The notes under the pieces were generated by a model. The model worked only from the letters and a program-made list of their open reading frames with translations. It was not told the DNA's origin and did no database searches. The translations under genes were made by a program, and so were the position numbers. Below, one piece after another: positions 143 through 24,460 of a DNA stretch of 32,114 bases. Position 1 is the stretch's first letter; the number at the start of each line of letters is the position of its first letter. Source of the stretch: a bacterium (GTDB lineage Bacteria > Electryoneota > RPQS01); NCBI GenBank assembly GCA_018814465.1, contig JAHIZR010000060.1, forward strand, positions 1 through 32,114. Reading direction: 5' to 3'.

Positions 143-214
143 GTTCCGGCAGGGTACCGTGCCCGAAAATTCTCGTATTGTCGGAGCTGTTCGGCGCTTA
201 GAGCCTGCGCGGCG
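143..214 (+). repeat. Long hairpin repeat, degenerate copy
   Basis: gttccggcagggtaccgtgc...ggcgcttagagcctgcgcggcg; closest to the copy at 4011. Confidence 0.7.
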
Positions 215-250
215 GGAAGGTAAAATCTGAAGGAAGAGACCCCCCTTTTG

Positions 251-288
251 TCCCCCCGTGAACGGGGGGAGAATATGAAAGCCCTCGG
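251..288 (+). repeat. TCCCYCCGTGAACGGRGGGA palindrome followed by GAAAGCCCTCG module
   Basis: tccccccg-tgaa-cgggggga then gaaagccctcgg; also at 3862 and 24505. Confidence 0.75.
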
Positions 289-477
289 GCGTGTGCGGGC
301 ACCCACCACGGCGAAGCAGACGGAGGGTGATTCAGAGGTTGATTAGATGCTGGATTTTACTATATTAGTAAGGTTATAGGTGGATTTTCCACCGGGGACG
401 GTGGGAGGTAGTAAATATAACTGTAAGTATTTGTATATATAAGTAATTAGAATTAGATCAGCAGGAGTTGACAGAAA

Positions 478-2775
478 ATGGCACTGGCCACGAATTTAGG
501 ATTTCCGCGGATTGGACCGAAGCGCGAACTGAAAAAGGCGGTGGAAAGCTACTGGGCGGGCAGGATTAATCGCGAAGAGTTGATGAACACGGCGGCGGAA
601 ATTCGGCAGGGAAACTGGAAACTGCAGCAAGAGTCAGGGCTGGACTATGTGCCATGCGGGGACTTCTCATATTATGACCATATGCTGGATACGATCGCGA
701 TGGCGGGAGCCGTGCCGGAACGCTACGGCTGGTCAGGCGGGGACGTCGACCTCGAAACTTATTTTGCGATGGCGCGCGGGATTCAGTCGAAGGGGAAAGA
801 CGGGCTGGATGCGCCGGCGATGGAGATGACAAAGTGGTTCGATACCAATTATCACTATATCGTTCCGGAATTCTCCAGCAAAACCAAGTTCAAGCTCTCG
901 TCAACGAAAGTCATTGATGAGTTCAAGGAAGCGGCAAGTCTCGGCATCAAGGCGCGTCCGGTGCTGGTCGGTCCGGTGACTTTTCTGTTATTGGGCAAGG
1001 CGCATGCGGATGACGTGAAGCCGCCGGCACTGTTAGATGATCTGCTGGAAGTTTATGTCGAAGTCTTAAAGCTGCTGCGTGAAGCCGGAGCGGAGTGGGT
1101 ACAGCTTGACGAACCGTGTCTGGTGCTGGACCTGACGAAGGAGGCGCGCGCGGCCTATCGGACCGCTTATGAAAAGCTGACGAAGGCCGTGCCGGGGCTG
1201 AAGATTCTGCTGGCGACCTATTTTGATGAGTTGCGCGAGAATATGAAGCTGGCGTTCAGTCTGCCGGTGGCGGCGGTGCATTTGGATCTGGTGCGCGCGC
1301 CGCAGCAGTTGGATGCGGCATTGAAAACGATTCCACGAAAAATGGCGCTGTCGGTGGGAGTGGTGGATGGACGGAATGTCTGGAAGACGGAATTCGACAA
1401 AGTGATCAATACGGTTCATACGGCGGCGGATGTGCTGGGAAATGAACGGGTGATGGTGGCTCCGTCGTGCTCGATGCTGCATTCGCCGGTGGATCTGAAG
1501 GCCGAAAAGAAGATGGACGGCGAGATCAAACAGTGGCTCGCTTTCGCGACGCAAAAGGTGTCTGAGATTGCTGTTATTACTAAGGCAGTCAACAAAGGGG
1601 AAGCCGCGGTAGCCGAAGAGCTGAAGGCTAACCGGGAAGCTTGCGCGAACCGTAAGACCTCGCGGAAGATTCATAACGATGCGACGAAAAAGCGTTCAGC
1701 GGCGGTAACTGACGCGATGATGAATCGCAAGTCGCCGTTTGCGGCGCGCCGCAAAGTGCAGCAGGAAGCACTGCAACTGCCGGCGTTCCCGACAACGACG
1801 ATCGGCTCTTTTCCGCAGACGCCGGAAATTCGCGCGATTCGAGCGGATTTCAAGAGTGGGAAGAAGAGCCTTGATGAATACAACGCCGCGATGAAAAAAG
1901 AGATCGAGTACGCAATCCGTTTTCAGGAAGAGATCGGCATAGATGTGCTCGTACACGGCGAAGCGGAACGGACGGATATGGTGGAGTATTTCGGGGAACG
2001 GCTGAACGGATTCGTGTTCACGACCTTCGGCTGGGTGCAGAGCTACGGCTCGCGCTGCGTGCGACCGCCGATTATTTTCGGAGATGTTTTCCGCGAGAAA
2101 CCGATGACGGTGGAGTGGGCGATTTACGCGCAATCGCTCACGAAACTGCCGGTGAAGGGCATGCTGACCGGACCGGTGACGATTCTGCAGTGGTCATTCG
2201 TGCGCGATGACCAGCCCAGAAGCGAAACCTGCCGGCAGATCGGCCTGGCGATTCGCGATGAAGTGGTGGATCTGGAGGCGGCGGGGATTCAGGTGATTCA
2301 GATTGACGAGCCGGCGATTCGTGAAGGATTGCCGCTGCGGAAGGATCGCTGGAACGAGTATCTGGAATGGGCGGTGAATTGCTTCCGGCTGTCGGCGTCT
2401 GGTGTGCGCGATGAAACGCAGATTCACACGCATATGTGCTACTCGGAGTTCAATGATATGATCGAAGCCATCGGCCGGATGGACGCGGATGTGATTTCGA
2501 TGGAGACGTCGCGTTCGCAGATGGAACTATTGCAGGCGTTCCGGGATTATAAGTACCCGAATGAGATCGGTCCGGGCGTCTATGATATTCATTCACCGCG
2601 CGTGCCCTCGGAAGCGGAGATGGAAGCGCTGCTGCGCAAAGCGTGCGAAGTTATTTCCGCCGATCAGCTCTGGGTAAATCCGGACTGCGGCTTGAAGACG
2701 CGCCGCTGGGAAGAAGTGAAGCCGTCGCTACAGCGGATGGTTTCGGCGGCGAAGAAGCTGAGGGCGAAGGGATGA
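478..2775 (+). CDS. metE: Cobalamin-independent methionine synthase
   Basis: 765 aa; LGFPRIG N-terminus, EMTKWFDTNYHY, HTHMCYSEF and WVNPDCGLKTR zinc-ligand motifs; RBS caggag. Confidence 0.98.
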   Translation: MALATNLGFPRIGPKRELKKAVESYWAGRINREELMNTAAEIRQGNWKLQQESGLDYVPCGDFSYYDHMLDTIAMAGAVPERYGWSGGDVDLETYFAMARGIQSKGKDGLDAPAMEMTKWFDTNYHYIVPEFSSKTKFKLSSTKVIDEFKEAASLGIKARPVLVGPVTFLLLGKAHADDVKPPALLDDLLEVYVEVLKLLREAGAEWVQLDEPCLVLDLTKEARAAYRTAYEKLTKAVPGLKILLATYFDELRENMKLAFSLPVAAVHLDLVRAPQQLDAALKTIPRKMALSVGVVDGRNVWKTEFDKVINTVHTAADVLGNERVMVAPSCSMLHSPVDLKAEKKMDGEIKQWLAFATQKVSEIAVITKAVNKGEAAVAEELKANREACANRKTSRKIHNDATKKRSAAVTDAMMNRKSPFAARRKVQQEALQLPAFPTTTIGSFPQTPEIRAIRADFKSGKKSLDEYNAAMKKEIEYAIRFQEEIGIDVLVHGEAERTDMVEYFGERLNGFVFTTFGWVQSYGSRCVRPPIIFGDVFREKPMTVEWAIYAQSLTKLPVKGMLTGPVTILQWSFVRDDQPRSETCRQIGLAIRDEVVDLEAAGIQVIQIDEPAIREGLPLRKDRWNEYLEWAVNCFRLSASGVRDETQIHTHMCYSEFNDMIEAIGRMDADVISMETSRSQMELLQAFRDYKYPNEIGPGVYDIHSPRVPSEAEMEALLRKACEVISADQLWVNPDCGLKTRRWEEVKPSLQRMVSAAKKLRAKG

Positions 2776-2819
2776 GGGAAGAAAGAAGAAGGATGAAGGA
2801 TGAGGGATGAGGGATGAAA
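2771..2819 (+). repeat. Purine-rich heptamer tandem repeat (GAWGARR x7)
   Basis: gatgagg gaagaaa gaagaag gatgaag gatgagg gatgagg gatgaaa, starting at the metE stop. Confidence 0.8.
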
Positions 2820-2852
2820 GGAAGCACCTTCCTCTATAACTATCTAAAATAT

Positions 2853-2923: not shown

Positions 2924-3002
2924 AGCCTTTTCGCCAATTCTCCTATGATAATCAGGGGATACGATCCGGTAGAGATTATTATCAACAAAGATAGAATGGA
3001 AC

Positions 3003-3842: not shown

Positions 3843-3861
3843 AAGAGATTATTTCCCTTGA

Positions 3862-3881
3862 TCCCTCCGTGAACGGAGGGA
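3862..3881 (+). repeat. TCCCYCCGTGAACGGRGGGA palindrome
   Basis: Perfect stem tccctccg-tgaa-cggaggga, with a compensatory change relative to the copy at 251. Confidence 0.8.
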
Positions 3882-3888
3882 GATAAAG

Positions 3889-3922
3889 AAAGCCCTCGGT
3901 GAAGATCGAGGGCTTTAATTTT
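3889..3922. terminator. Probable bidirectional intrinsic terminator
   Basis: aaagccctcggt-gaag-atcgagggcttt between convergent genes. Confidence 0.65.
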
Positions 3923-4010: not shown

Positions 4011-4083
4011 GATTCCGGCAGGGTTGCGCGCCTACTTGAATCTCGTAATGGAAAAGATGTTCGGCGCTTAACCCTGCTCGGCG
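4011..4083 (+). repeat. Long hairpin repeat
   Basis: gattccggcagggttgcgcgc-N31-ggcgcttaaccctgctcggcg. Confidence 0.9.
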
Positions 4084-9863: not shown

Positions 9864-11372
9864 ATGATGGATACACGCACGGCTTACGAAGCACTGATAA
9901 AGGAATATAAAGCGGTCTCGACGCTCGGATCGATCGAGGGTTTACTGCATTGGGATCTGCAGACGATGATGCCGCGGAAGGGAGCGGTGATTCGCGCGGA
10001 TCAGATGGCGATTATTTCGGGTTTGGCGCACCAGAAGCTGACTTCTGACAAGGTGCGGGATCTGCTGGGGACGCTGAACACCGCGGAGAATACGCTTAGT
10101 GACGAAGAACGCGCGAATCTGCGCGAGATCGACCGGGATTTCACGCGCGCAACGAAACTGCCGCAGGAGCTGGTGGAGGAGCTGACTCGTCAACGGTCGA
10201 AGTGCCACAATGTCTGGGAAGCGGCGCGCGAAGCCGGAGACTTCTCAAAATTTGCCCCGGATCTGGAGAAACTCGTTGACTTGACCAAGCAGCAAGCGGA
10301 GTGTCTCGGATATGAGGATACGCCGCTGGATGCGCTGATCGATGAGTATGAACCGGGAGCGACGGCGGCGTCGCTAACGACGATGTTCAATGAAGCAAAA
10401 AAGACGACGATTCCGCTGCTGAATAAAATTCTGGGATCTGCGGTTAAAGCCAATTTCGATTTTCAGAAGCAAACCTTTCCGCAACCAAAGCAGAAGGCTT
10501 TCGGGGAAGAGATCACAACGGTGATCGGATTTGACAAGTTGGGTAGCCGGCTTGATTCAGCCGTGCATCCGTTCTGCTCGGGAGGCCGGGGCGATATTCG
10601 AATCACAGCGCGCTATAACGAGCATGCTCCGCAGCAGGCGATTTTCGGGATTATTCATGAAACCGGACATGGTTTGTATGAGCAGGGAGTGAGGGAGGAT
10701 ACGCTGGGGACGCCATTGTCACAGCCGCTGAGTTATGGACTGCATGAATCGCAGAGCCGAATGTGGGAGAATATCATCGGCCGCAGTCTGCCGTTTTGGA
10801 AATTAAGCTATCCGATTCTGACGAAGTATTTCGGGGCAGAGTTAAAGGGCGTCAGCGTTGAAGACTGGGTGCTGGCGATCAACCATGTCGAGCAGAGTTT
10901 TGTGCGGGTCGAGGCCGACGAACTTACTTATGATTTGCATATCATTCTGCGGTTCGAGATCGAACGTGAGCTGTTTGCCGGAACGATTTCGGTGGCGGAT
11001 TTGCCGACGGTGTGGAACAAGAAATTCGAGGACTACTTGGGCTTGACTCCTCCGAATAACGGCAAAGAGGGTGTGATGCAGGATATTCATTGGGCGATGG
11101 GAAGCTTCGGATACTTTCCGTCCTATAGTGTGGGAAACATCGCGGCGGCGCAGTTCTGGGCGAAGATGAAGGAAGATATGCCGAAGCTGGAACAGCAGAT
11201 AGAAACAGGCGACTTCAAGGATATTCTGAATTGGCTTATCGTGAACGTACATGAACAGGGCCGCCGCTATTCACGCGATGACCTGATGAAGCGCGCGACG
11301 GGGACTCCGCTGGATGTCAAGCACTATGCGAACTATTTGACGGAGAAGTTCACGAAGCTGTATCGGGTGTAA
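9864..11372 (+). CDS. Carboxypeptidase M32 (carboxypeptidase Taq family)
   Basis: 502 aa; HPF, DIRIT, HETGH (HEXXH), HESQ, RVEADE, QDIHW, GYFPSY motifs. Confidence 0.95.
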   Translation: MMDTRTAYEALIKEYKAVSTLGSIEGLLHWDLQTMMPRKGAVIRADQMAIISGLAHQKLTSDKVRDLLGTLNTAENTLSDEERANLREIDRDFTRATKLPQELVEELTRQRSKCHNVWEAAREAGDFSKFAPDLEKLVDLTKQQAECLGYEDTPLDALIDEYEPGATAASLTTMFNEAKKTTIPLLNKILGSAVKANFDFQKQTFPQPKQKAFGEEITTVIGFDKLGSRLDSAVHPFCSGGRGDIRITARYNEHAPQQAIFGIIHETGHGLYEQGVREDTLGTPLSQPLSYGLHESQSRMWENIIGRSLPFWKLSYPILTKYFGAELKGVSVEDWVLAINHVEQSFVRVEADELTYDLHIILRFEIERELFAGTISVADLPTVWNKKFEDYLGLTPPNNGKEGVMQDIHWAMGSFGYFPSYSVGNIAAAQFWAKMKEDMPKLEQQIETGDFKDILNWLIVNVHEQGRRYSRDDLMKRATGTPLDVKHYANYLTEKFTKLYRV

Positions 11373-11373
11373 G

Positions 11374-11408
11374 GATGAAGGCGGAAGGATGAAGGATGAA
11401 GCCTGAAG
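11374..11408 (+). repeat. Heptamer tandem repeat (GATGAAG-like x5)
   Basis: gatgaag gcggaag gatgaag gatgaag cctgaag directly after the stop codon. Confidence 0.75.
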
Positions 11409-11410: not shown

Positions 11411-11485
11411 GATTCCGGCAGGGTTGCGCTGAAAATATGTTGTGCCTGCAAGAAAAAGGAATTGGCTGCTTAACCCTGCTCGGCG
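11411..11485 (+). repeat. Long hairpin repeat
   Basis: gattccggcagggttgcgc...gctgcttaaccctgctcggcg. Confidence 0.9.
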
Positions 11486-11904: not shown

Positions 11905-11929
11905 TACATCCGATAGATGTATTTCTCCA

Positions 11930-11963
11930 GATTCCGGGCACCCGGGGACGGGCGCCTCGGCGG
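11930..11963 (+). repeat. Short hairpin variant
   Basis: gattccgggcacccg-ggga-cgggcgcctcggcgg; identical 34-mer at 24579. Confidence 0.9.
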
Positions 11964-11971
11964 AACATTAT

Positions 11972-12043
11972 GTTCCGGGTAAGGTTGCGCATCTAAAAAT
12001 GATACGATAACCGAGCGATTTCTGCGCTTAGCTCGGCTCGGCG
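11972..12043 (+). repeat. Long hairpin repeat with a decayed left arm
   Basis: gttccgggtaaggttgcgcat-N30-tgcgcttagctcggctcggcg. Confidence 0.85.
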
Positions 12044-12050
12044 AGAAGGG

Positions 12051-12076
12051 AACCCACACCCCGGAGGGTGTGGGTT
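12051..12076. repeat. Perfect 11-bp hairpin between convergent genes (REP-like or terminator)
   Basis: aacccacaccc-cgga-gggtgtgggtt; no clear U-tract. Confidence 0.6.
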
Positions 12077-12098
12077 AGTATGGATGAAGGGGAATGTG

Positions 12099-13364
12099 CT
12101 ATTTGATGTTGAAGTCGGGATTGTCTTGATTAAAGATTTTTTCATTGAGCTCGCCTTCGGACTTGGCGATCACGACAGCGGCGGCGGAATCCCCCGTAAT
12201 ATTGACGGCAGTCCGCATCATATCAAGCAAGCGATCCACGCCGATAATGAGCGCGATACCCTCGACGGGAAGGTTAACGGAGATGAGCACCATTGACAGG
12301 GTGATCAGACCGACACCGGGTACTCCGGCGGCGCCGATGGAGGCGAGCGACGCGGTTAAGACTACTGTGACCAGATCGGGGATCGTCAGGCTGATATTAT
12401 AGACTTGAGCGATGAAGGCCGCCGCGACTCCCTGCATGATCGCCGTGCCATCCATGTTGATGGTTGCGCCGAGCGGCAGAGCAAAACTGGCGATGCCGCT
12501 GGAGACACCGTTTCGAGTTTCATTGACTTCCATCGTGACCGGGAGTGTGGCATTGGATGAAGAGGTCGAGAAGGCGACGGTCATCGCGGGAAACATGTTC
12601 TTGTAAAACTGCACGGGAGAGACACGGCCGATTACTGTGAGTAGCGCGGGATAGACAAGAGCAAGCTGCAACAAAAGCGCGGCAATCAGCGTCAAAACAT
12701 AACTAAGCAAGGGCAGGAGCACATCGAGTCCCTGCTCGATAAAAACCTTCGAAATAAGCGCGAACACACCGGGAACAGCCAGCCAGAGAACGATTTCCAC
12801 TACGCGCATCATCATGTCATTCAGTACTTCCAGGATGCGCATCACCGGCTCACTCTTCTTTCCTATCTGAGCCAGTGCAATCCCCACGATCAGTGCGAAA
12901 AAGATAATCTGCAGCATGGAGCCTTCGACCATGGACTGAAAGGGATTCTTGGGAATCATGTCCACGAATACATCCATGATGAAGGGAGCTTCCTTTGGAG
13001 TGAAGGAGGCATCTGTCGGGATCGTTATAGACTCTCCCGGGCGCACAATACCGGCGGCGAGTGTGAGTGCGATAGTCACCGCGATCGCTGTTGTAACCAT
13101 ATAGAGAACAACGACTTTTATACCAACCCTACCCAATTTCTTAGGATCGCCGACGGAAGCAGCTCCATAAGTGAGGGAGATCAGGACAATGGGCACAACC
13201 AGCATCGTAATCGCACGGAGAAAGATGCTGCCGATGGGCTGGAAAAGCCACTTAACCAGACCGTCATTGAATTCGGCTGAAAAAGCGTTGTGGGCCACGA
13301 TGCCGAAAATCAAGCCGGCGCCCAATGCGATTAATATCCAGGATGTAAGAGATAATTTTTTCAT
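12099..13364 (-). CDS. Dicarboxylate/amino acid:cation symporter (DAACS, GltP/GltPh-like)
   Basis: FSTSSSNATLP, GATINMDGTA, GAAGVPG and DRLLDMMRTAVN motifs; likely start MKKLSL at 13364. Confidence 0.93.
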   Translation of the reverse strand: MKKLSLTSWILIALGAGLIFGIVAHNAFSAEFNDGLVKWLFQPIGSIFLRAITMLVVPIVLISLTYGAASVGDPKKLGRVGIKVVVLYMVTTAIAVTIALTLAAGIVRPGESITIPTDASFTPKEAPFIMDVFVDMIPKNPFQSMVEGSMLQIIFFALIVGIALAQIGKKSEPVMRILEVLNDMMMRVVEIVLWLAVPGVFALISKVFIEQGLDVLLPLLSYVLTLIAALLLQLALVYPALLTVIGRVSPVQFYKNMFPAMTVAFSTSSSNATLPVTMEVNETRNGVSSGIASFALPLGATINMDGTAIMQGVAAAFIAQVYNISLTIPDLVTVVLTASLASIGAAGVPGVGLITLSMVLISVNLPVEGIALIIGVDRLLDMMRTAVNITGDSAAAVVIAKSEGELNEKIFNQDNPDFNIK

Positions 13365-13401: not shown

Positions 13402-13435
13402 AATTCCGGGCGCCCGAAGACGGGCGGCCCGGCGG
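13402..13435 (+). repeat. Short hairpin variant
   Basis: aattccgggcgcccg-aaga-cgggcggcccggcgg between divergent genes. Confidence 0.75.
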
Positions 13436-13521: not shown

Positions 13522-15828
13522 TTGATTTTGAATGCCAACTCGAAGCAGAGGCGCTCGATTCCGGACTCAGCTCGCGCCAACATCCTGAGTTCGATATGCG
13601 TACTATTGGCGCTTCTTCTGGGCGGAGTTTGCCCGAACTCCGCAATGGCGCATGTAACAATTTCCGGCAAAATCCATGATCTGGAGACCGGAGAATCCAT
13701 CCCCGGCGTGGCCGTGATGGTCAAGGGTACGACCCGCGGCGATGCCGCTAATGTGGAGGGATTTTTCTCGATTCCGAATCTGGAGGCCGGCGCAAATACG
13801 CTGATCTTCTCGGCGTTGGGATACGAGCGGAAGGAAATGATGATTGAGCTCGCGGATGGCGAGAGCATTAATATTCTGACCGATATGAAGCCTATGGCAT
13901 TGAAGATGGGCGAGGTCGAGATCGTCACGGAATACGAAAACGAGGATCCGAAGTTTGCTCCCGAGGTCGCGCGAATCCGGGTTTCAGCCAAACAACTAAG
14001 CAAAGTTCCGCAAGTTGCCGAGGCTGATCTGTTTCGCGCGCTGCAAATCATGCCGGGCGTGCTGCCTTCATCCGACTTTTCGGCGGACCTGAATATTTGG
14101 GGCGGCTCGGCGGATCAGAACCTGATTCTATTAAACGGCATCAATGTTTATAAGCCCTCTCACTTGGGCGGATTCTTCTCCATCTTTAATATGGACGCCA
14201 TTAAGGATGTCAAGCTGATCAAGGGAGGTTTCGGAGCAAAATACGGCGGCAGATTATCGGCTGTGGTGGATATCTCCGACCGGGAAGGCAACCGCAACGA
14301 AACACATGGAAAGGTTGGCGTTTCCTTCTTATCTTCGCAGGCAATGTTTGAAGGACCGCTGCCAAAAGGATCATGGATGGTGGCGGGGCGGCGCACCTAT
14401 GTCGATGGCGCGACGAAGCTGCTCAAGGACTGGAAAGTAGTTAGCGACGATTTCCCCTATTATTTTTATGATTTCAATGCGAAAGTTACTCGAGATTTTG
14501 AAAACGGAGATCGCCTGACGCCTTCGGTGTATTATGGAGATGATATCTTTAAGATTACTTCATCCTCGAATGACCGTATTCGGTTGAACTGGGGCAATCG
14601 TACCTATAGTCTGCCCTATGTGCATATTTTCTCGCCGAAGCTTTATTCGAGACACACGCTTGCGGGGAGCCATTTTAATGCCCGTCAGCGCTTTGAAACG
14701 ACAGATGCCTGGTTCGAGTGGGAAAACGAAATGCGGGATTTCACGGCCAAGAGTGAATTCACTTGGTATCCTAATGCGCGGAATACAATTGAATTCGGCG
14801 CGCAGAGCAAGTATATTGATGCCAGTTTATTGGTCCAGGATCAGAATCGCGTGTACTTAGACGCAAATCCTGACGGCAATCTGGCTTCTGTATACGTTTC
14901 CGACAACTATCGGGTAACTGAAAAGTTTACGGTCACTCCCGGTTTGCGATATGAATATTTCTCACTGTCCGATCAGCACGAGCCGCAGCCGCGACTGGGC
15001 TGGCGATATGATTTGAATGATCATTCGACGCTCAGCGCCGCTTGGGGAATGTATACTCAATATCAGCAATTGGTTTCTTTCGGCAGCGGGTTTGTTTCGA
15101 TTTTCGATTCCTATGTTCCATTGGATGAATCGTTTGAACCGAACCGAGGATATCAATATGCGCTGTCTTATGTAAACGAGCGAATCGGACCTTTCCGATT
15201 TACCTGGGACATCTATTATAAGAAGTTCCGGAACGTGATTGAGTTTGAGATTCGGCAGGAAGATGACGGTGACTCCGAACTGAACGACATGTTCATGACG
15301 GGTGACGGCTATGCGTATGGCATCGATGCGCTGCTCGAAGGAACTTGGGGAAGCTACGACGTCTTCATTGGTTATGCGCTTGGGCAGAGCCGGAGGTCAT
15401 TCAGTAAAATCGACAGCGGGCTGGTTTACCCAACACATTTTGACAAGCTGCATAACTCGAATGTTACTTTAAGCCGGAAGATTCGCAAGCGGGCGAAGTT
15501 AGAGGTTCGCTGTTCCTACAGCTCCGGCAAGCCGCAGGATCGTCCGGTGGCGGCTTACAGTCCCGGTTTGGACTTGCCCGGGCACTTCTTCGAACGCGGC
15601 CGGAAGAACGCCTATCGCGTTCCCGATTATTTCAGATTAGATGTGGCCTATCGTCTGCGATATGACTTCAAGCGGTGGAGCTTCTCGCCGTATATCGAGT
15701 TCATCAATCTAACCGGCAGGAAGAACCGGCTGGCAGAACAGATCAGTGTAGAGACCAATCCTCCCACAACGGATTGGATAAACCAGCTTCCATTCATCCC
15801 CTCGATCGGCTTCACGGCGGAGTTTTAA
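13522..15828 (+). CDS. TonB-dependent receptor with N-terminal CarboxypepD_reg-like domain
   Basis: TISGKIHDLETGESIPGVAV, plug region with GGFGAKYGGRLSAVVDI, C-terminal Phe; TTG start uncertain. Confidence 0.9.
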   Translation: MILNANSKQRRSIPDSARANILSSICVLLALLLGGVCPNSAMAHVTISGKIHDLETGESIPGVAVMVKGTTRGDAANVEGFFSIPNLEAGANTLIFSALGYERKEMMIELADGESINILTDMKPMALKMGEVEIVTEYENEDPKFAPEVARIRVSAKQLSKVPQVAEADLFRALQIMPGVLPSSDFSADLNIWGGSADQNLILLNGINVYKPSHLGGFFSIFNMDAIKDVKLIKGGFGAKYGGRLSAVVDISDREGNRNETHGKVGVSFLSSQAMFEGPLPKGSWMVAGRRTYVDGATKLLKDWKVVSDDFPYYFYDFNAKVTRDFENGDRLTPSVYYGDDIFKITSSSNDRIRLNWGNRTYSLPYVHIFSPKLYSRHTLAGSHFNARQRFETTDAWFEWENEMRDFTAKSEFTWYPNARNTIEFGAQSKYIDASLLVQDQNRVYLDANPDGNLASVYVSDNYRVTEKFTVTPGLRYEYFSLSDQHEPQPRLGWRYDLNDHSTLSAAWGMYTQYQQLVSFGSGFVSIFDSYVPLDESFEPNRGYQYALSYVNERIGPFRFTWDIYYKKFRNVIEFEIRQEDDGDSELNDMFMTGDGYAYGIDALLEGTWGSYDVFIGYALGQSRRSFSKIDSGLVYPTHFDKLHNSNVTLSRKIRKRAKLEVRCSYSSGKPQDRPVAAYSPGLDLPGHFFERGRKNAYRVPDYFRLDVAYRLRYDFKRWSFSPYIEFINLTGRKNRLAEQISVETNPPTTDWINQLPFIPSIGFTAEF

Positions 15829-16673: not shown

Positions 16674-16694
16674 AGGAGAAAGGAGAAAGGATAA

Positions 16695-17246
16695 ATGAAT
16701 AGAGAAGAAGCCTGGGCATTGCTCTGTGAATGGACAGAGAACGATGCCTTAAGAAAACATGCGTTGGCCGTCGAAGCGGCGATGCGCTTCTATGCCCAGA
16801 AGTTCGGCGAGGATCCTGATGAGTGGGGAATCGTCGGACTGCTGCATGATTTCGACTATGAAAAGTATCCGACGATGGAAGAGCATCCCTATAAGGGCGT
16901 CGAGCATCTAAGATCGATCGGTGTGCCGGAAAGCTGGTGCGAAGCGATTTTAGCGCATGCTCCTTATACCGGACAGAAGGCGGAGTCGACTATGGCGAAA
17001 TCACTTCTGGCGAGCGATGAGCTTACGGGATTGATCGTGGCGACAACCTTAGTACAGCCCTCCAAGAAAATCGCCGATTTGAAGCCGAAGTCCGTGAAGA
17101 AGCGCATGAAGGAAAAAGCATTCGCCAAGAAAGTCAACAGGGAAGATATCATTCAAGGGGCGGAGATGCTGGGCATCCCGCTGGAAGAACATATCGAAAA
17201 TGTCGTGAATGCCATGCGCGATTCCGCCGAGGCGCTGGGATTGTAG
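16695..17246 (+). CDS. HD/HDIG-domain metal-dependent phosphohydrolase
   Basis: LRKHALAVE, GLLHDFDYE, AILAH, SDELTG; strong RBS. Confidence 0.9.
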   Translation: MNREEAWALLCEWTENDALRKHALAVEAAMRFYAQKFGEDPDEWGIVGLLHDFDYEKYPTMEEHPYKGVEHLRSIGVPESWCEAILAHAPYTGQKAESTMAKSLLASDELTGLIVATTLVQPSKKIADLKPKSVKKRMKEKAFAKKVNREDIIQGAEMLGIPLEEHIENVVNAMRDSAEALGL

Positions 17247-17271: not shown

Positions 17272-17302
17272 CCGGGTGGAAGATCAATTCCACCCGGTTT
17301 TT
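17272..17302 (+). terminator. Intrinsic terminator
   Basis: ccgggtggaa-gatcaa-ttccacccgg followed by ttttt. Confidence 0.85.
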
Positions 17303-17316
17303 GTTGGAAAAGCGCA

Positions 17317-17345
17317 TTGACTTCAAAACCGAAATTTTCTATATT
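17317..17345 (+). promoter_or_regulatory. Sigma70-type promoter
   Basis: TTGACT-N17-TATATT. Confidence 0.7.
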
Positions 17346-17378
17346 AGGATTATCCAATCTTATAAAGCGGGTATAGAA

Positions 17379-19511
17379 ATGAGAAAGATGTTGTCGATTA
17401 CAGTCGTGATGTGCATGTTCATCGGCGCGGCTATCGCACAAGACAGCTTGAACGTGCGTCAGATGAGCAGGCTTGAGGATTATTGGGATGCAACGCAAGC
17501 ACTCGAAATCGTCGACACTCTGGCCTTCGTGGCAACCGGCCGGACGGGATTACGGATCGTCAGCTTTGCGGACACAGCGAATCCGATAGAGGCAGGTTAT
17601 ATTCTTTTTCCGACAAGTGTCGTCGATGTAGCGGTGAGGGGCAATTATGCATTTGTAGCCAACTATCGATTTACAGTTGTTGATATATCGAATCCAGCCT
17701 CACCGACCGAAATAGGAAGCCTGCAGTCCGTATCAGCGGAAAATATCTGCCTGTCCGGTGACTACGCATATGTCTCTGATAACTGGGGCGGTCTGAATAT
17801 TCTTGATATTGCCGATCCCGCTAATCCATCGTTAGCAGGTTCCTTAAACCTTCCGGATGATGCAATGGATTTTGATGTGGCGGGAAGTCTGTTGTATTCA
17901 GCAACCTCGGATGCAGGACTGTTAATTATCGACATAAGCGATCCGGCTAATCCGGAACAAATCGGCGCTTTCGATACTCCCGGTTCGGCGATGGGGGTTA
18001 CTGTGGAAGGCAATTACGCTTTTATCGCTGACTATAATGAAGGTCTTCGGATTATTAGCATCTCTAATCCATCCAATCCACAGGAGGTGGGTTATATCGA
18101 TGACATCGGCAGTGCAAACGATGTAGCGGTATCTGGAGCGTATGTATATGTTGCCGACCGCAACTGGCAGAGTGGCCTTTATATTATTGACATCACGAAT
18201 CCCGCGGCACCGGAAGAAGCTGCCTTGCTTGAGCTGCAGGACTTCACACTCAGCCTGGAAGCTGCCGGCAATACTGTTTTTATCGCCGAGGAGTTTTCCG
18301 GCTTGCGGATTATCGATGTGTTCTCACCATCAACTCCTGCGGAAGCAGGCTGCTTCTGGGGAAAGGGACGTGCCAATGCAGTCGCAGTCTCAGGCGATTT
18401 TGTGTATTTGGGAGGAGGGAGCGAGTTGCGAATTATCAGTATTGCCGATCCCGAGGCTCCGCTGGAAATCGGAAACTGTGAAACGCCGGGTGCAATTGGC
18501 GGGATTGCCGTATCGGGGAATTTTGCCTATGTTGCAGACAACAGGGAAGGACTGCGAGTGATCGATATCTCAAATCCGGCGCTTCCATCTGAGATCAGTT
18601 TTTCTTCGGCGGGGAACGAAGCAAATGATGTAGCGGTGCAAGGCAATTATGCCTACGTTGCTGATGAGGAAAGAGGTCTAATAGTGATAGATATTACCGA
18701 TCCTCATGCGCCGATAGAAGCAGCTTGTATCGGAACGCCCAATATTACGCAGGATGTTGCGGTATCAGGAAATTATGCATATCTCGCGGACGGTCTGGGA
18801 GGGCTTCGCATAATCGACATGACAAATCCATCCAGTCCCTTCGAAGCAGGCGCTTTCGAAGACATCCATAATGCGTGTGGTGTGGCGGCATGCGGCAACT
18901 ATGCATATGTGGCGGATCGAGGTCTGACGAGCGGTCTTTGGATTATTGATGTGACGAATCCCGCGACTCCCTTCGAGACCGGACGATATCAGACTTCCGG
19001 GCATGGCAACGACGTTGCAGTACTCGGCCACTATGCCTATATCGCTGATGATGATGAAGGTTTGAGAGTTATTGACATTTCTGATCCAACAGCTCCTTTT
19101 GAATCCGGCTATTACGATACTCGAGGAACGTCCATGGATTTAGCCGTAGCGGGCGACTATGCGTATGTAGCGGATTATATCTATTTCGGAATCTACGATT
19201 GTTCGGAGGCTTTAGTCGAATCAGGCAGCAACGAAATCCCGAGCCCCAACTCCGTAAGGCTTTATCAGAGTTATCCGAATCCATTTAATCCGACAACGAC
19301 AATTCGTTTTGACCTAACGATGACAAGCGAGGTGTCGCTGGAGGTCTATAACATAGCAGGGCAAAGAGTGGAGACTCTTGCCGAAAGTCCGATGCTGCCG
19401 GGAACACATGTGTTTGAGTTTGATGGGTCACAAGTTTCTTCAGGGACGTATTATTATACTCTGCGAACAGGCGCGTTTCTGGAGACGAAACAAATGGTGC
19501 TGATTAAATGA
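17379..19511 (+). CDS. LVIVD-repeat beta-propeller protein with T9SS type A-like C-terminal sorting domain
   Basis: Signal peptide MRKMLSITVV; 14 repeats of VAVSGNYAYVAD..GLRIIDISNP; SYPNPFNP...KQMVLIK. Confidence 0.9.
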   Translation: MRKMLSITVVMCMFIGAAIAQDSLNVRQMSRLEDYWDATQALEIVDTLAFVATGRTGLRIVSFADTANPIEAGYILFPTSVVDVAVRGNYAFVANYRFTVVDISNPASPTEIGSLQSVSAENICLSGDYAYVSDNWGGLNILDIADPANPSLAGSLNLPDDAMDFDVAGSLLYSATSDAGLLIIDISDPANPEQIGAFDTPGSAMGVTVEGNYAFIADYNEGLRIISISNPSNPQEVGYIDDIGSANDVAVSGAYVYVADRNWQSGLYIIDITNPAAPEEAALLELQDFTLSLEAAGNTVFIAEEFSGLRIIDVFSPSTPAEAGCFWGKGRANAVAVSGDFVYLGGGSELRIISIADPEAPLEIGNCETPGAIGGIAVSGNFAYVADNREGLRVIDISNPALPSEISFSSAGNEANDVAVQGNYAYVADEERGLIVIDITDPHAPIEAACIGTPNITQDVAVSGNYAYLADGLGGLRIIDMTNPSSPFEAGAFEDIHNACGVAACGNYAYVADRGLTSGLWIIDVTNPATPFETGRYQTSGHGNDVAVLGHYAYIADDDEGLRVIDISDPTAPFESGYYDTRGTSMDLAVAGDYAYVADYIYFGIYDCSEALVESGSNEIPSPNSVRLYQSYPNPFNPTTTIRFDLTMTSEVSLEVYNIAGQRVETLAESPMLPGTHVFEFDGSQVSSGTYYYTLRTGAFLETKQMVLIK

Positions 19512-19720: not shown

Positions 19721-21691
19721 ATGAAGTCTGCACCTCTTGCCTTTCTGCTTGTTCTAACTTTAACAATTTCAGCATTTTCAGTAAATTATCCGGAGCATGC
19801 CCGGATTAAAGGACCCGTCCTGCTGACCGGAATGGAAGACACTTCATTCCCCGAAAACTATCAGGCGCCGCGCTCGATGAATTTCACCCTGGATGAGGGC
19901 ACACCGGGATCCGTGTATTATACGGTCGGAACCACTTATTATGACAATCAGCACAACGGCACCGCCGGGAAACAGCTTGCGGTGGATCAGGGTGGTTTTG
20001 TGCATCATGTCTGGACAAAGGGATTGGAGGCCGGTTCAGCGACCCGGCACGTTTATTACCGGTGCTGGGAGCCGTCAAGTGGCGAGTTCATTCAAGGTGA
20101 TGAAACTCAAATCGATGCTTCCAATCGCGCCGGTTTTGTCACGGTGGCGGCGCGGCCGGACGGATTCGCATTTCCGGCTTTTCATCAGATTCTGGTTCCG
20201 GGCGGCGATCCGCATGCAGCGGTGGCGATAGATTTCTTGCCCAGATCCGGCGCATATCTGTCTTCACAGATTCCACTGCTGCCGAATGAGGCAATGGTGA
20301 TCTGGCCGAAAATCGATATCGATATTGAAGGAAATGTGCATACGGTCAGCACGGAAAGCGAAGGGGATGGATTAGAGTATTATGCGAAGGGATTTCCGCA
20401 GTACGATGAATTCGGTTTCGGCGAGGGCATTCTGTGGCCCGATGGTTTTATGCAATGGGATTCTTCGACTTTCATCACGCTGGATGTCTCGACTTCCTGG
20501 CATTCCAACCGCGTCGCCGTGGCTTGGATTAAGGATCCTATCGGACTGCAATTTGCCGATTACGGCGACTATGACGGCTATAATGTCTGGCTGAAGATTT
20601 CGGAAGACGGCGGAGTGAATTGGGGAGAATCGATTCCGGTGACGAATATTCCGCCGATTGATACGATGTGCGTCTTGCTGGGCGGAGATCCGACAATCTG
20701 CAATGCCGATACGATGCACCCCTGGCTGGACTGTTCAGTGCTGCTGGACGATAACGATGTCGCACATGTGGCGTTTTCCGCCTCCGGCAATTTCTATTGG
20801 GATGACTCGGGGGCTGTCAATGTTAATGCGGGGCTGGTATTCAGCAGTATCTGGCACTGGGGAGAGGATCGCGAAGAGTTCAACATCATCAACGAAGCAT
20901 GGTTCAGTCACACTTCCGTGTCGCTCGGTGTGAATAATCTGATGACGCACCGCCCGAATCTGGCCATTGATACCATCACGGGATATCTATATTGTTCGTT
21001 TGTGGAATTCGACAGCGTGCAAATCAGCTTGGGCGGCTATCCCAGCGGCGATTCCTATATGTCGGTGTCAACCGACGGGGGGCAAACGTGGGCGGAGAAG
21101 ACCAATATCTCTAATACCGTCGGATCCAATGGCGGCATTGATACTCCGGCGGGTGAGTGCGCGAGCGAGCGTGACGTGATGCTGGCGAAGTTTGTCACGG
21201 ATGGAATCATTCATGTGCAGTACCAGCTTGATCTTGACAACGGGACTTCGATCATGGATACTCCGGAAGGAGTGCCGACAAACAACCCGATTATTTATCA
21301 GAGAATTCCGGTCGAAGATATTCCGACAACTCCGATTATCAATCCGTTCCGCGCGTTTCGTGCGGATTCCACCGGCTATCCGTGGGTGTTGGGGATCGCG
21401 GAAAGGAATCGTGAAGCTGTTCCGCACGATTTCACCTTGTATCAGAATTATCCGAATCCGTTCAATCCGACAACTCATATTCAGTTCGACCTGCAAAGTC
21501 AGACACAGCCTGTCCTGACCGTGTTCGATGTGATGGGCCGCGAGGTCGCCAGACTACTGAACGGGCAGACGATGTCCGCGGGAACACATGTCGTGGAATT
21601 CGACGCGACCGGATTGTCCTCGGGAGTCTATTTCTATCGTCTGGAGACTCCGCTGCACAATACGACACGGAAGATGATGCTGATAAAGTGA
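19721..21691 (+). CDS. Secreted Asp-box/BNR-type propeller protein with T9SS type A-like C-terminal domain
   Basis: RBS ggagg; signal peptide; SEDGGVNW and STDGGQTW Asp-boxes; QNYPNPFNP...RKMMLIK. Confidence 0.85.
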   Translation: MKSAPLAFLLVLTLTISAFSVNYPEHARIKGPVLLTGMEDTSFPENYQAPRSMNFTLDEGTPGSVYYTVGTTYYDNQHNGTAGKQLAVDQGGFVHHVWTKGLEAGSATRHVYYRCWEPSSGEFIQGDETQIDASNRAGFVTVAARPDGFAFPAFHQILVPGGDPHAAVAIDFLPRSGAYLSSQIPLLPNEAMVIWPKIDIDIEGNVHTVSTESEGDGLEYYAKGFPQYDEFGFGEGILWPDGFMQWDSSTFITLDVSTSWHSNRVAVAWIKDPIGLQFADYGDYDGYNVWLKISEDGGVNWGESIPVTNIPPIDTMCVLLGGDPTICNADTMHPWLDCSVLLDDNDVAHVAFSASGNFYWDDSGAVNVNAGLVFSSIWHWGEDREEFNIINEAWFSHTSVSLGVNNLMTHRPNLAIDTITGYLYCSFVEFDSVQISLGGYPSGDSYMSVSTDGGQTWAEKTNISNTVGSNGGIDTPAGECASERDVMLAKFVTDGIIHVQYQLDLDNGTSIMDTPEGVPTNNPIIYQRIPVEDIPTTPIINPFRAFRADSTGYPWVLGIAERNREAVPHDFTLYQNYPNPFNPTTHIQFDLQSQTQPVLTVFDVMGREVARLLNGQTMSAGTHVVEFDATGLSSGVYFYRLETPLHNTTRKMMLIK

Positions 21692-21760
21692 TTCCGGCCT
21701 GGTTGCGCACATCAAATGACTCGATGGTTGTACGATCTCTGTGCTTAGCCCGGCTCGGCG
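21690..21760 (+). repeat. Long hairpin repeat overlapping the stop codon
   Basis: gattccggcctggttgcgcac-N29-tgtgcttagcccggctcggcg. Confidence 0.9.
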
Positions 21761-21795
21761 GATATTGTTGCACAACGATTTCTTATTTGGGATAG

Positions 21796-21815
21796 GTGCT
21801 TAGCCCGGCTTGGCG
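21796..21815 (+). repeat. Isolated right arm of the long hairpin repeat
   Basis: gtgcttagcccggcttggcg. Confidence 0.8.
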
Positions 21816-21859
21816 AATTACACCGAACGATTACCGCAAACATCAGATGAGGTTACACC

Positions 21860-23224: not shown

Positions 23225-23250
23225 CCAACTACTGTTACCATTTAAATGTT

Positions 23251-24354
23251 GTGCCTATGATATCCATTTCTTCAAACATCGAATCTCTGATTCCTTACCA
23301 GCCCGGACGCAGCGTCGAGGAAATCCGGGAGTTGTATGGTCTCGAGCATATCGTCAAGCTGGCTTCGAATGAGAATCCGCTCGGGCCCGCGCCCAAGGCG
23401 CTGCTGGCCGCCGAAGAGGCGCTGCTGAATATGCATTTATATCCGCGAACGGGAGTGCGGCTGCGGGAGAAGCTCGCGGCGATCCACGGAGTTGCGACCG
23501 ATAATGTGATGGTCGGCGCCGGCTCGGAGTCCGTGCTGTTGAGCCTGATTCGCGCCTACCTGACACGGGATGATGAGGTGCTGACGGCGGAGGGAACTTT
23601 TATTGCCATCTACGTTCAAACGAAATCACAGGGAGTGGGTCTGCGGACAGTGCCCCTGAAGCAATATCGTTTCGATCTGGATGCTTTAGCGGATGCCATA
23701 ACCGATAAGACGAAGCTGATTTATTTTGCGAATCCGAATAATCCCACAGGGACGATTTTTACCCGCGCCGAGTTCGAGAAATTCATCGAGCGTGTTCCGA
23801 AGCATATTCTGGTCGTTTTCGACGAAGCCTATTTCGATTATGCGAAGGAAAATCCGGACTATCCGAATTCGCTGGAGTACCGCCTCGATAATGTGGTCAC
23901 ACTGCGGACTTTTTCGAAATCCTACGGATTGGCGGGAGCGAGAATCGGCTATGGATTCGCGCATCCGGAAATCTGCCGCAACGTGAGAAAAGTACATTTG
24001 CCGTTCGATCCGTCTTTGCTCGCGGAAGCGGCGGGGGTCGGGGCGCTGGATGACGCGGAATTCCTGGAGCGAACGATTCAGGTAAATCGAGCGGGGAAAG
24101 CGTTTCTGGAAGAGTGCTTTAAGGAGATCGGTTTGCCGGTTGTACCGACGGAGGCGAATTTCTTCATGGCTGCGTTCGGAACCGAGGCGGAGGCGATAAA
24201 CTTTACCGAGGACCTGCTGAAGCAGGGTGTGATTGTGCGTTATCTGAAGGCGTTCCGGCTGCCCAACTGCGTGCGGATCACCATCGGAATCCAGGAAGAG
24301 AATGAGTTTCTGATGGAGGCCATGAGAAAGGTTTATAGTCCGGTGACGGTGTGA
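23251..24354 (+). CDS. hisC: Histidinol-phosphate aminotransferase
   Basis: KLASNENPLG, NPNNPTG, DEAY and LRTFSKSYGLAGARIGY (PLP lysine); start GTG 23251 or ATG 23257. Confidence 0.92.
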   Translation: MPMISISSNIESLIPYQPGRSVEEIRELYGLEHIVKLASNENPLGPAPKALLAAEEALLNMHLYPRTGVRLREKLAAIHGVATDNVMVGAGSESVLLSLIRAYLTRDDEVLTAEGTFIAIYVQTKSQGVGLRTVPLKQYRFDLDALADAITDKTKLIYFANPNNPTGTIFTRAEFEKFIERVPKHILVVFDEAYFDYAKENPDYPNSLEYRLDNVVTLRTFSKSYGLAGARIGYGFAHPEICRNVRKVHLPFDPSLLAEAAGVGALDDAEFLERTIQVNRAGKAFLEECFKEIGLPVVPTEANFFMAAFGTEAEAINFTEDLLKQGVIVRYLKAFRLPNCVRITIGIQEENEFLMEAMRKVYSPVTV

Positions 24355-24389
24355 TTCTACCCCCCTTTTCCGAGTCTATTCCAAAATAG

Positions 24390-24460
24390 GATTCCGGCCG
24401 GGTTGCGCACCTCAAATGACTCGATTACTGGACGATTTCTGTGCTTAGCCCGGCTCGGCG
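24390..24460 (+). repeat. Long hairpin repeat
   Basis: gattccggccgggttgcgcac-N29-tgtgcttagcccggctcggcg. Confidence 0.9.

Follow-up and report, generated by a model that had tools for sequence, protein, structure and literature searches.

The hairpins dispersed through the window, by which we mean the whole stretch of 32,114 nucleotides analysed, are most probably (at roughly 85%) REP-type elements: small single-hairpin DNA repeats that are not autonomous and rely for their spread on a dedicated transposase of single-stranded DNA, the REP-associated tyrosine transposase (RAYT), which is an HUH/Y1 enzyme belonging to class 2 of TnpAY1. The sequence-only reading of this DNA had proposed a family resembling REP or PATE elements. 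Its REP-like part, with an associated HUH nuclease, is borne out by the RAYT genes, their bracketing and the relatives; the variant reading as PATE or IS200/IS605 ends is not supported, since the enzymes fail the IS200 equivalog and each element is a single hairpin.

The eight long copies and the half copy reported in that reading were recovered at their coordinates by arm matches, alignment and a covariance model, and their intergenic position agrees with the ORF list, the copy at 21690 sharing 2 nt with the stop codon of ORF 19721–21691. The gap between the arms, put earlier at 29–32 nt, measured 29–33 nt, which leaves the lower bound standing and replaces the upper one. The 5' arm consensus has 6 sites in the window at three mismatches or fewer and the 3' arm consensus has 8, against chance expectations of 0.01 and 0.02, respectively, and every one of these matches lies on the + strand. 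The covariance model identified the copies at 143 (62 bits) and 11972 (58 bits) as diverged full copies. A short form of 34 nt sharing the foot of the long hairpin (family D18) had been overlooked. The features, with their model scores in bits, are:

143–215, + strand: long hairpin, diverged, of the subtype with the GGGTACCG 5' arm (covariance model R1 match at 136–220, 62.3 bits; alignment)
2853–2923, + strand: long hairpin, 71 nt, downstream of the metE-like ORF 478–2775 (Pfam); 85.1 bits, MFE -29.6 kcal/mol, z -3.7
4011–4083, + strand: long hairpin, 73 nt, between convergent ORFs; 83.2 bits, z -3.9
11411–11485, + strand: long hairpin, 75 nt, first member of a tandem pair; 77.8 bits
11496–11566, + strand: long hairpin, 71 nt, second member of the tandem pair, 10 nt past the first; 84.7 bits, z -3.5
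11930–11963, + strand: short 34-nt form with the same foot, whose 32-nt ATTCCGG-to-CTCGGCG core is that of the RAYT-bracketing copies on C137 (family D18)
11972–12043, + strand: long hairpin, diverged (3' arm match; covariance model, 58 bits)
13402–13435, + strand: degenerate copy of the short form (82% identity to the reference copy), located at the 5' edge of a - strand ORF (family D18)
21690–21760, + strand: long hairpin, 71 nt, beginning at the stop codon of ORF 19721–21691; 82.2 bits
21795–21815, + strand: half copy, a lone 3' arm (3' arm match with 1 mismatch; alignment)
24390–24460, + strand: long hairpin, 71 nt, the top model match in the window; 88.9 bits, z -3.9
24579–24612, + strand: short 34-nt form, 100% identical to the copy at 11930 (family D18)

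All forms of the element have the same foot, 5' AG-ATTCCGG and 3' C-T-CGGCG. In this foot AG-ATT forms the 5' tail and CGG the 3' tail, while the basal stem, CCGG/CCGG, contains a single bulged T. Long and short forms alike have A/G-G-ATTCCGG on the 5' side. Both the bulged T and the internal loop noticed earlier are real, the former lying in the foot and the latter in the medium and long forms, where its 3' arm is always CTTA(A/G). The size classes are short (32–34 nt), medium (38–45 nt) and long (71–75 nt), and differ in the apical part: a tetraloop in the 32–45-nt forms, a core of about 30 nt in the long form of the window, and a still larger top in relatives, where the element reaches about 104 nt in total. 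Each element is one hairpin without a left-end/right-end pair.

The compensatory arm changes already pointed out hold in an alignment of 47 sequences. At pair 16-128, 40 sequences have CG, 5 have AU and 1 has GC; at pair 26-117, 24 have AU and 14 have GC. Pair 20-124 shows UA 24 times and UG 18 times, and 42/47 sequences have GU at pair 22-121. Stem cells are paired in 96% of cases, as against at most 45% with the 3' partners slid, counts which are biased towards the model's structure since the alignment was fitted to it. Changes on both sides occur in just 4 of 16 pairs and separate subfamilies, which implies few independent events. The two strands are predicted to fold equally well: with RNA parameters the means are -26.56 for the top and -26.26 for the bottom strand, the top being the more stable in 62/130, and with DNA parameters the mean is -13.18 for both. 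Since they fold alike, the case for strand specificity depends on the asymmetry of the tails and on the bias in skew described below.

The search for a RAYT/TnpA(Y1) gene flanked by copies, proposed in the earlier reading, was successful. Three Y1_Tnp genes are present in the assembly (PF01797 above cut-off). All three exceed the cut-off of 80 bits of the NCBI equivalog model NF047646, 'REP-associated tyrosine transposase' (with 86.1, 108.8 and 87.9 bits), and fail the IS200 equivalog NF033573 (30.7, 20.8 and 26.5 bits; cut-off 55). In an alignment of 26 sequences PDH.H, W101, Y122...N126-P127 and W141-S-S are invariant or nearly so, giving an HuH motif together with the Y---NP tyrosine motif that passages of PMC6006769 describe as the class 2 signature. 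Sequences at least 40% identical to RAYT1 were found only inside the order, where the lineage has 1–11 diverged RAYT paralogues per genome, at most 60% identical. Comparison of RAYT1 with the PDB gave no sequence match to E. coli TnpA-REP, and only ISDra2-type transposases were recovered (E = 0.0075).

On contig C137 of the same assembly a 160 amino acid RAYT gene (L001 730–1212, - strand) lies between two identical inverted stretches of 39 nt (697–735 and 1218–1256), with a third at 200–238; the ATTCCGG-to-CTCGGCG core of these stretches is the window's 32-nt short form, with the same foot as the long one. A model built from long copies only detected the short copies flanking RAYT genes in a 136-kb search (at L045, 21.1, 20.1 and 18.9 bits; E 2e-4 to 1e-3). 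Among the RAYT-clade loci of species representatives, foot-bearing hairpins stand on both sides in 13/37 and on at least one side in 20/37; at the two-sided loci the upstream copy is on the - strand and the downstream copy on the + strand, with which the model matches agree. In other genera, the medium forms flanking RAYT genes at L049, L055 and L064 are the arms of the long form with a short loop, and long forms of 62–104 nt flank them at L062, L065 (= L099), L070, L092 and L095. In this assembly no RAYT is bracketed by the long form itself, and its link to RAYT therefore rests on the shared foot and on the relatives. As the assembly (3.29 Mb) is 90.6% complete and in 513 contigs, a further RAYT could be unassembled.

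Assembly-wide we counted about 148 long and 30 short copies. The nhmmer search gave 148 near-full matches, and the covariance count of 148 is a lower bound, 150 of about 1379 first-look candidates having been scored. On a crude ORF map, 137/148 copies fall outside ORFs and 11/148 inside one. The covariance model found the family in all 29 genomes of the order that were searched (23/23 of the same family and 6/6 of a second family), at 1–95 copies per genome, and in 0/11 genomes outside the order. At the orthologous aminotransferase locus none of 23 relatives has a downstream copy as in the window and two have an upstream copy; at this single locus examined, the insertions are not orthologous. 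In addition, in a strain of about 95% identity (run X3) one contig joins 11918 to 12100, a putative skip of the short copy and the 11972 copy. The relative G020 (96% complete, 4 contigs) has 78 copies, many of them near-identical, which form local clusters and tandem arrays, a dense cluster sitting among normal-sized genes; no Y1 gene was found in it despite these copies. G009 (98% complete) has one copy, and again no Y1 gene was found. The range of 1–95 copies, together with the single copy in G009, shows that the element is dispensable.

The orientation of the copies follows GC skew and not gene direction. Adjacent copies more than 300 nt apart lie on the same strand in 26 cases and on opposite strands in 6. 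The GC skew of the flanks, taken on the element's strand, is positive for 87/112 long copies (p = 3e-9), for 54/70 when one copy per contig is used, and for 23/29 short copies. Skew also correlates with gene strand in this genome (r = 0.50), and the bias is seen both where the neighbouring genes are co-oriented (47 vs 6) and where they are anti-oriented (48 vs 20). It amounts to about 3:1 and is not absolute. On contig C2 of G020, 18/24 copies agree with the local 10-kb skew, and the cumulative skew minimum lies about 20 kb from dnaA, which supports the G-rich strand being the leading strand; to the right of the putative origin 6/10 copies run against the replichore trend. The same strand polarity has been reported for IS200/IS608 (extract of PMC3971601). 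We suggest that the strand reading ATTCCGG...CTCGGCG would fold while exposed as single-stranded DNA in the lagging-strand template of a replication fork, and we infer that a RAYT would bind the foot, cleave beside it through its tyrosine and re-join it elsewhere. One of the RAYT paralogues would presumably move the long form in this way. Copies with an intact foot would keep propagating while the apical core drifts.

In the window alone the hairpins could pass for a structured RNA element maintained for a role in transcripts (a 3'-UTR stabiliser, a terminator or a small RNA): all eight copies are in sense orientation downstream of a + strand gene, with none in three divergent intergenic regions, and compensatory changes preserve the hairpin, as do G-U wobbles when the + strand is read (pairs 20-124 and 22-121). 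Moreover, the E. coli REPs are reported (PMC6006769) to affect mRNA stability and termination. We nevertheless consider this very unlikely. Genome-wide, orientation is not tied to transcription, since the crude ORF map, with the 11/148 copies inside ORFs set aside, gives 29 sense and 40 antisense copies in tandem gene contexts and 12 between divergent genes. No T-run follows the element (T makes up 22–37% of the 3' flank at +3 to +10), the insertions are not orthologous beside the same gene in the 23 relatives, and the two strands are predicted to fold equally well. A comparison with Rfam gave 0 matches in the window at gathering thresholds, and the long hairpin had no match even when E was allowed to reach 1; over 24360–24640 the latter setting returned only weak leader- or sRNA-like matches, which fall on a neighbouring terminator-like repeat. 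A secondary effect on transcripts carrying a copy may exist.

The strand bias might also be read as the product of selection on a chromosome-architecture or replication signal domesticated by the host, the RAYT merely maintaining it. KOPS and Chi are skewed motifs comparable in logic, the family persists across the whole order, the bias of about 3:1 appears in two genera, and conservation is far stronger in the arms than in the cores; G020, in addition, keeps its copies well preserved with no Y1 gene found. No result here, however, requires a host function, and the contrast between arms and cores is also expected if propagation needs an intact foot. Copy number falls to one in G009, with no Y1 gene found, and the local clusters and tandem arrays resemble products of transposition more than spaced signals, so that we regard such a signal as highly improbable.

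That the hairpins are ends or miniature derivatives (PATE/MITE) of IS200/IS605 elements, or integron attC sites, is extremely unlikely. The attC sites are imperfectly paired hairpins that contain extrahelical bases, vary in their centre and are used as folded single-strand substrates, a design which they have in common with IS200/IS605 ends and which our hairpins recall. IS608 and ISDra2 further resemble the present system in having a Y1 HUH enzyme, in their subterminal hairpins with a guide sequence on the 5' side of the foot, and in an orientation bias whereby the active strand reads the way the fork moves; single-stranded DNA transposition of IS200/IS605 is coupled to the lagging-strand template (extract of Gomez 2014, PMC3971601; Ton-Hoang 2010 as cited). 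The elements described here, however, are non-coding single hairpins with no distinct left and right ends, the three Y1 proteins pass the RAYT equivalog and not the IS200 one, and the RAYT paralogues, at most 60% identical, are unlike active IS copies. Against attC sites, the copies occur one by one on more than 100 contigs, beside housekeeping genes of normal size. The element ends do not seem to carry the R boxes (R''/R') of attC.

As first reported, the core diverges far more than the arms, with a mean pairwise identity of 0.56 (shuffled 0.50) against 0.83 in the 132/148 copies that could be anchored. The notion of a scaffold presenting a variable loop of about 30 nt as a guide or specificity element draws on the narrow core length (modes of 31 nt in 46/132 and 35 nt in 31/132) at an identity which barely exceeds the shuffled value, but is scarcely credible. 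Single linkage at 65% identity unites 121/132 cores in one similarity network, a sign of drift from common ancestors. When the 132 cores were compared by BLAST with the genome, all copies being masked, the matches were limited to other repeat families, weak copies that had escaped masking, and stretches of 15–16 nt at E of about 0.05, i.e. repeats and chance, and a guide role is therefore not supported. In G020, from a related genus, most copies close the same arms on a 4–6-nt loop, which indicates that the core is dispensable to the family.

The REP-type reading may be set against described systems. With E. coli REP/BIME and TnpA-REP (RAYT, YafM; a REPtron of TnpAY1 subclass 2.2; Ton-Hoang 2012 and Messing 2012 as cited in parts of PMC6006769) the elements have in common a small gene for an HUH/Y1 protein bearing the motifs DHLH and Y---NP, its bracketing by inverted copies of an imperfect bulged hairpin, more than 100 extragenic dispersed copies (single, tandem or clustered), and several repeat subfamilies per genome. 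They differ in having a 5' tail AG-ATT instead of the canonical GT[AG]G guide tetranucleotide, with neither a GTAG nor a CGTC tag at either end, and a CGG tail that is conserved on the 3' side. Hairpin length runs from 32 to about 104 nt, the apical part being replaceable, and the genomes carry several diverged RAYT paralogues, RAYT1 being too distant for a sequence match to the E. coli structure. The REP size range given in a portion of PMC6006769 is 21–65 nt, which accommodates the short and medium forms and is exceeded by the window's long form.

TnpAY1 subclass 2.6, class 3 and the TIRYT/TIRtrons likewise have RAYT-class genes, flanking repeats without GTAG, and copies elsewhere in the genome, the feet of subclass 2.6 and class 3 being non-GTAG ones such as CnGA (sections of PMC6006769 and PMC3733652). 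Subclass 2.6 and class 3 possess NH[LIV]H or NHVH, whereas the motif here is DHLH; the TIR motif GGGGWSAS of the TIRYT/TIRtrons is absent here.

The REPIN-RAYT systems of Pseudomonas (Bertels and Rainey 2011, PMC3116915, in part) are similar in their hairpins of about 70–110 nt with highly conserved ends and a less conserved spacer, in the retention of length and pairing through compensatory changes (here 4 pairs with double changes), in vertical persistence within a lineage, and in decay or persistence after RAYT loss. A REPIN, being a doublet in which one REP occurs twice in inverted orientation, has symmetric ends, whereas the present element is one asymmetric hairpin; a doublet was rejected because the ends differ (5' AG-ATT-CCGG, 3' C-T-CGG-CGG with the bulged T) and the short form is the long form's foot, not its half or arm. 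The hairpins represent a known kind of system, REP/RAYT, which is non-canonical in foot and size, in an unusual long and modular form whose foot is the conserved unit and in which everything above is free to vary.

All eight long copies named by the sequence-only reading are present in the window, as judged by alignment and by R1, a covariance model of the long hairpin whose sources were the 8 window copies and 2 copies of contig C405; its half copy was borne out as a lone 3' arm. The two arm consensus patterns had 6 and 8 matches in the window, all on the + strand, against 0.01 and 0.02 expected by chance. The repeat finder (family D18) added a 34-nt short hairpin, which had been missing from that list. 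The repeats and neighbouring features of the window are as follows.

143, 2853, 4011, 11411, 11496, 11972, 21690 and 24390: long hairpin copies
21795: lone 3' arm of the long hairpin
11930 and 24579: 34-nt short hairpin with ends as in the long elements
13402: degenerate copy of the 34-nt short hairpin
247-300, 3858-3911 and 24501-24554: second repeat family: G/C hairpin (loop GTGAA), then AAAGCCCTCGG and a second stem
2762-2817, 11365-11406 and 16674-16715: purine-rich GGATGA/GAAGGA tracts right after stop codons (family D7)
17301-19511 and 25950-32114: large repeat-rich ORFs

Compared with shuffled sequence, five of the eight long copies fold far better (z of -3.5 to -3.9 for four, -2.1 for copy 21690); copy 11411 and the diverged copies 143 and 11972 do not. 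The second repeat family has 24 copies genome-wide, counted with 3 mismatches or fewer to the 22-nt core, often ~100-150 nt from a long hairpin, and its weak, sub-threshold leader- or sRNA-like Rfam matches suggest a terminator-like structure. Two of the purine-rich tracts lie just upstream of hairpin copies, and long copies generally have A/G-rich sequence on their 5' side. One of the large ORFs has a ~126-nt periodic repeat (families D2, D9 and D12); the other (>2055 aa, open at the window end) has repeated domains (families D5, D6 and D13-D17), and ORFs neighbouring them carry type IX secretion C-terminal sorting domains.

The assembly behind the window (3.29 Mb, 513 contigs) is 90.6% complete. 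In it the pattern ATTCCGG...CTCGGCG has 157 exact matches, 87 of them of 69-75 nt and 30 of 32 nt. The covariance model gave at least 148 matches at E <=0.01, a lower bound since scoring covered the 150 first-look candidates only, and an nhmmer profile independent of it gave 159, of which 148 were near full length. The long form has several subtypes in this genome, differing in upper stem and core. Tandem copies were also considered as a source of a fixed spacing or target motif; their spacers, 0-40 nt long, show no favoured length, and the sole pattern seen is that many finish with CGGG ahead of the next copy, so that no cleavage site can be derived from them.

The family is defined by an asymmetric foot: an AG-ATT 5' tail, a CCGG/CCGG basal stem with a bulged T, and a CGG 3' tail. 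In an alignment of 47 sequences (own-genome copies, and one or two per genome from 11 related genomes), which was fitted to the model and thus favours its structure, 96% of stem cells are paired; sliding the 3' partners by 1-3 columns lowers this to 45% or less. Changes on both sides occur in 4 of the 16 pairs (25 cells), and 3 pairs are invariant. These double changes are the compensatory changes named by the sequence-only reading, and since they mark off subfamilies they represent few events. The bulged T and the G-T/C-T internal loop are indeed constant, the loop having an invariant CTTA(A/G) on its 3' arm. When 130 copies were folded with RNA or DNA parameters, the top and bottom strands were predicted to be equally stable, and G-U wobble was accordingly dropped as proof of a top-strand fold. 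The hairpin, which had not been recognised from its sequence, matched no Rfam family at gathering or relaxed thresholds.

Three Y1_Tnp genes were found in the assembly, all falling above the NCBI REP-associated tyrosine transposase equivalog and below the IS200 model.

RAYT1, contig C137, 160 aa: between two identical inverted 39-nt stretches, with a third one nearby
RAYT2, contig C107 (locus L002): direct copies of its own unrelated 29-nt palindrome, which has 11 copies genome-wide
RAYT3, contig C405 (locus L003), 49% identical to RAYT1: two other hairpins as nested inverted pairs, with 9 and 4 copies genome-wide

The core of the 39-nt stretches around RAYT1, from ATTCCGG to CTCGGCG, is the 32-nt short form of the window. 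On the same contig, RAYT1 is adjoined by an ORF of at most 178 aa (locus L001, 257-793, - strand) without a Pfam match. This ORF has a foot-bearing copy on either side, at 200-238 and at 697-735, and the second copy overlaps its annotated 5' end. Read on the other strand, one of the RAYT3 hairpins has the same design with the bulged T replaced by G, and one genomic copy of it begins with the ATTCCGG foot. An alignment of 26 RAYTs retains PDH.H, W, Y...NP and WSS; Y---NP is given as the class 2 signature in the excerpted text of Quentin et al. (PMC6006769). A PDB sequence search with RAYT1 matched ISDra2-type transposases only (E = 0.0075), and not the E. coli RAYT.

Among the three RAYT genes of this assembly none is bracketed by the long form, which is tied to the RAYT by the shared foot, by the bracketed RAYTs of relatives and by the medium and long forms that flank some of these. 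A model made solely from long copies detects the short copies flanking RAYT1 at E values of 2e-4 to 1e-3 (136-kb search). In relatives, foot-bearing hairpins lie on both sides of the RAYT-clade gene at 13 of 37 loci and on at least one side at 20 of the 37, as counted by a regular expression with a stem check, with which a covariance-model search agrees; a further 30 RAYT loci, mostly duplicates of these, were left uncounted. The flanks at loci L049, L055 and L064 are medium forms, having the long form's own arms with a short closing loop, and those at L062, L065, L070, L092 and L095 include long forms of 62-104 nt. The related genome G024 (96% complete, 20 contigs) has 93 copies and one RAYT1-clade gene flanked by 32-nt copies, as well as one further weak Y1 match at the cut-off.

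Core lengths have modes at 31 nt (46/132) and 35 nt (31/132), the remaining 16 of the 148 copies having been left out because they could not be anchored on the foot. As proposed earlier, the cores diverge far more than the arms, with mean pairwise identities of 0.56 and 0.83, respectively (0.50 for shuffled cores); at 65% identity, 121 of the 132 cores fall into one single-linkage group. The accompanying suggestion that the variable core might serve as a guide did not survive. Beyond other repeat families, a handful of weak copies left unmasked and chance matches of 15-16 nt, BLAST of the cores against their own genome, with all copies masked, returned nothing. The core is dispensable in the related genome G020, where most copies consist of the same arms and internal loop with a 4-6-nt closure (45-, 40- and 39-nt forms) and a few have loop insertions. 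Taken together, the identity network, the lack of genomic targets and the short-loop copies indicate, as far as sequence comparison goes, that the core is an apical extension which drifts and can be dispensed with, rather than a presented guide. It resembles the Pseudomonas REPIN spacer, described in the excerpted text of Bertels and Rainey (PMC3116915) as less conserved, with length and pairing kept and with compensatory changes. The apical part of natural copies ranges from 4 to ~75 nt, and some copies hold apparent further REPs within the loop. On contigs C248, C242 and C221 of the own genome, a few long copies have foot-bearing short hairpin-like or other-repeat sequence as core, and these replacements may be nested insertions into the loop.

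The family is restricted to one order. In a search whose filters tighten above 40 genomes, the model matched all 23 genomes of the same family and all 6 of another family in that order, at 1-95 copies per genome, and it matched none of the 11 genomes taken from further families of the class and phylum. RAYTs with 40% or more identity to RAYT1 number 1-11 per genome inside the order, and outside it matches reach at most 34%; across GTDB, with one genome per species, the nearest beyond the clade are Acidobacteriota-type RAYTs at no more than 39% identity. Neither G020 (78 copies, 96% complete) nor the relative G009 (1 copy, 98% complete) yielded a Y1 gene. Within G020 seventeen copies are packed in 20 kb; six 45-nt copies stand in tandem with a 59-nt period at 14686-15025 of locus L199 (G020:C1:1455001-1475000), and four 40-nt copies with a period of ~173-222 nt at 13822-14430 of locus L204.

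Insertions are non-orthologous at the single locus tested, that of the aminotransferase gene upstream of copy 24390 (24 order loci searched of 30 returned, comprising our own and 23 relatives): a copy lies downstream of the gene in 0 of 23 relatives and upstream in 2 of 23. A contig of a ~95%-identical strain omits 11919-12099, which holds a short copy and copy 11972, with or without other letters in its place. A joint from 2824 to 2966, in the run on this strain's public contigs (X3), replaces copy 2853 by 31 other letters and was not counted, its side being only 20 letters long. Public contigs terminate at hairpin copies, and in practice the repeats break up assemblies of this lineage.

Copy orientation was compared with a crude gene map (ORFs >=100 aa, 148 copies). 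Eleven of the 148 copies lie inside an ORF, 19 between convergent genes, 12 between divergent genes and 37 at contig ends; in tandem gene contexts 29 are sense and 40 antisense, and therefore the direction of transcription does not set copy orientation. A sense-strand 3'-UTR reading, for which the window offered 8 of 8 copies downstream of + strand genes, was rejected on these genome-wide counts. Neighbouring copies more than 300 nt apart are on the same strand in 26 of 32 cases. There is a 3:1 strand bias: read on the element's strand, the flanks (up to 5 kb out, leaving aside the nearest 200 nt on either side) have positive GC skew for 87 of 112 long copies, for 54 of 70 with one copy per contig, and for 23 of 29 short copies. 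GC skew in this genome also follows the gene strand (r = 0.50, coding strand +0.053), and the bias persists beside both co-oriented (47 vs 6) and anti-oriented genes (48 vs 20). In G020 the sign of the skew matches the majority copy orientation in 16 of 20 sampled 20-kb regions, and over the whole of its contig C2, local 10-kb skew agrees with 18 of 24 copies. The dnaA gene of this contig lies ~20 kb from the cumulative-skew minimum and was rejected as a simple origin marker. A second skew reversal occurs 120 kb off and orientations are mixed rightward of dnaA, 6 of the 10 copies on that side having the opposite orientation, so that the contig is not a clean replichore.

The excerpted texts of PMC3971601 and PMC6006769 describe the active strand of IS200/IS608 as the leading-sequence strand, that is, the lagging-strand template. 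The hairpin family is similar, in that the top strand defined by the foot coincides with the G-rich, leading-sequence strand, which places it on the lagging-strand template. Our literature search found no such strand bias reported for REPs, its one match concerning IS elements. We infer that the RAYT would recognise the foot when folded in single-stranded DNA at the replication fork, and would then cut the foot-bearing strand and re-join it. Copy lineages with an intact foot would go on propagating as the apical part drifts, and after loss of the RAYT the copies might linger, as in G020, or vanish, as in G009. It is a good deal less probable that the RAYT reads the foot only, leaving the apical part as a free cargo slot in a natural foot-plus-cargo mobilisation of single-stranded DNA, with the strand-biased copies, still well preserved in a genome that yielded no Y1 gene, perhaps adopted by the host for a replication-linked role.

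The hairpin/RAYT system of this order would work like the REPtron of E. coli and the REPIN-RAYT systems of Pseudomonas. Unlike canonical REPs, the hairpins lack a GT[AG]G tag and, in the long form, are over 65 nt long, and since their ends are asymmetric they are not REPINs. RAYT-class genes with atypical, non-GTAG flanks are already on record as subclass 2.6 and class 3 in the excerpted text of PMC6006769, and we therefore regard the system as a variant within known REP/RAYT systems. Literature searches found no description of such repeats for the KSB1 lineage, the listed REPIN/RAYT papers concerning other groups.

These results extend REP/RAYT biology to an uncultured FCB-type lineage, apparently KSB1/Calditrichota-like. 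Specialists may find interest in the constant foot and replaceable apex, in the strand bias and in the well-preserved copies of G020, which looks Y1-less. With a foot constant across the order and over several RAYT paralogues, and an apical part ranging from a tetraloop to ~75 nt, the family is a natural experiment on which parts the enzyme requires. Should closed genomes bear out the 3:1 strand bias, it would amount to population-level evidence for REP spread via the lagging-strand template.
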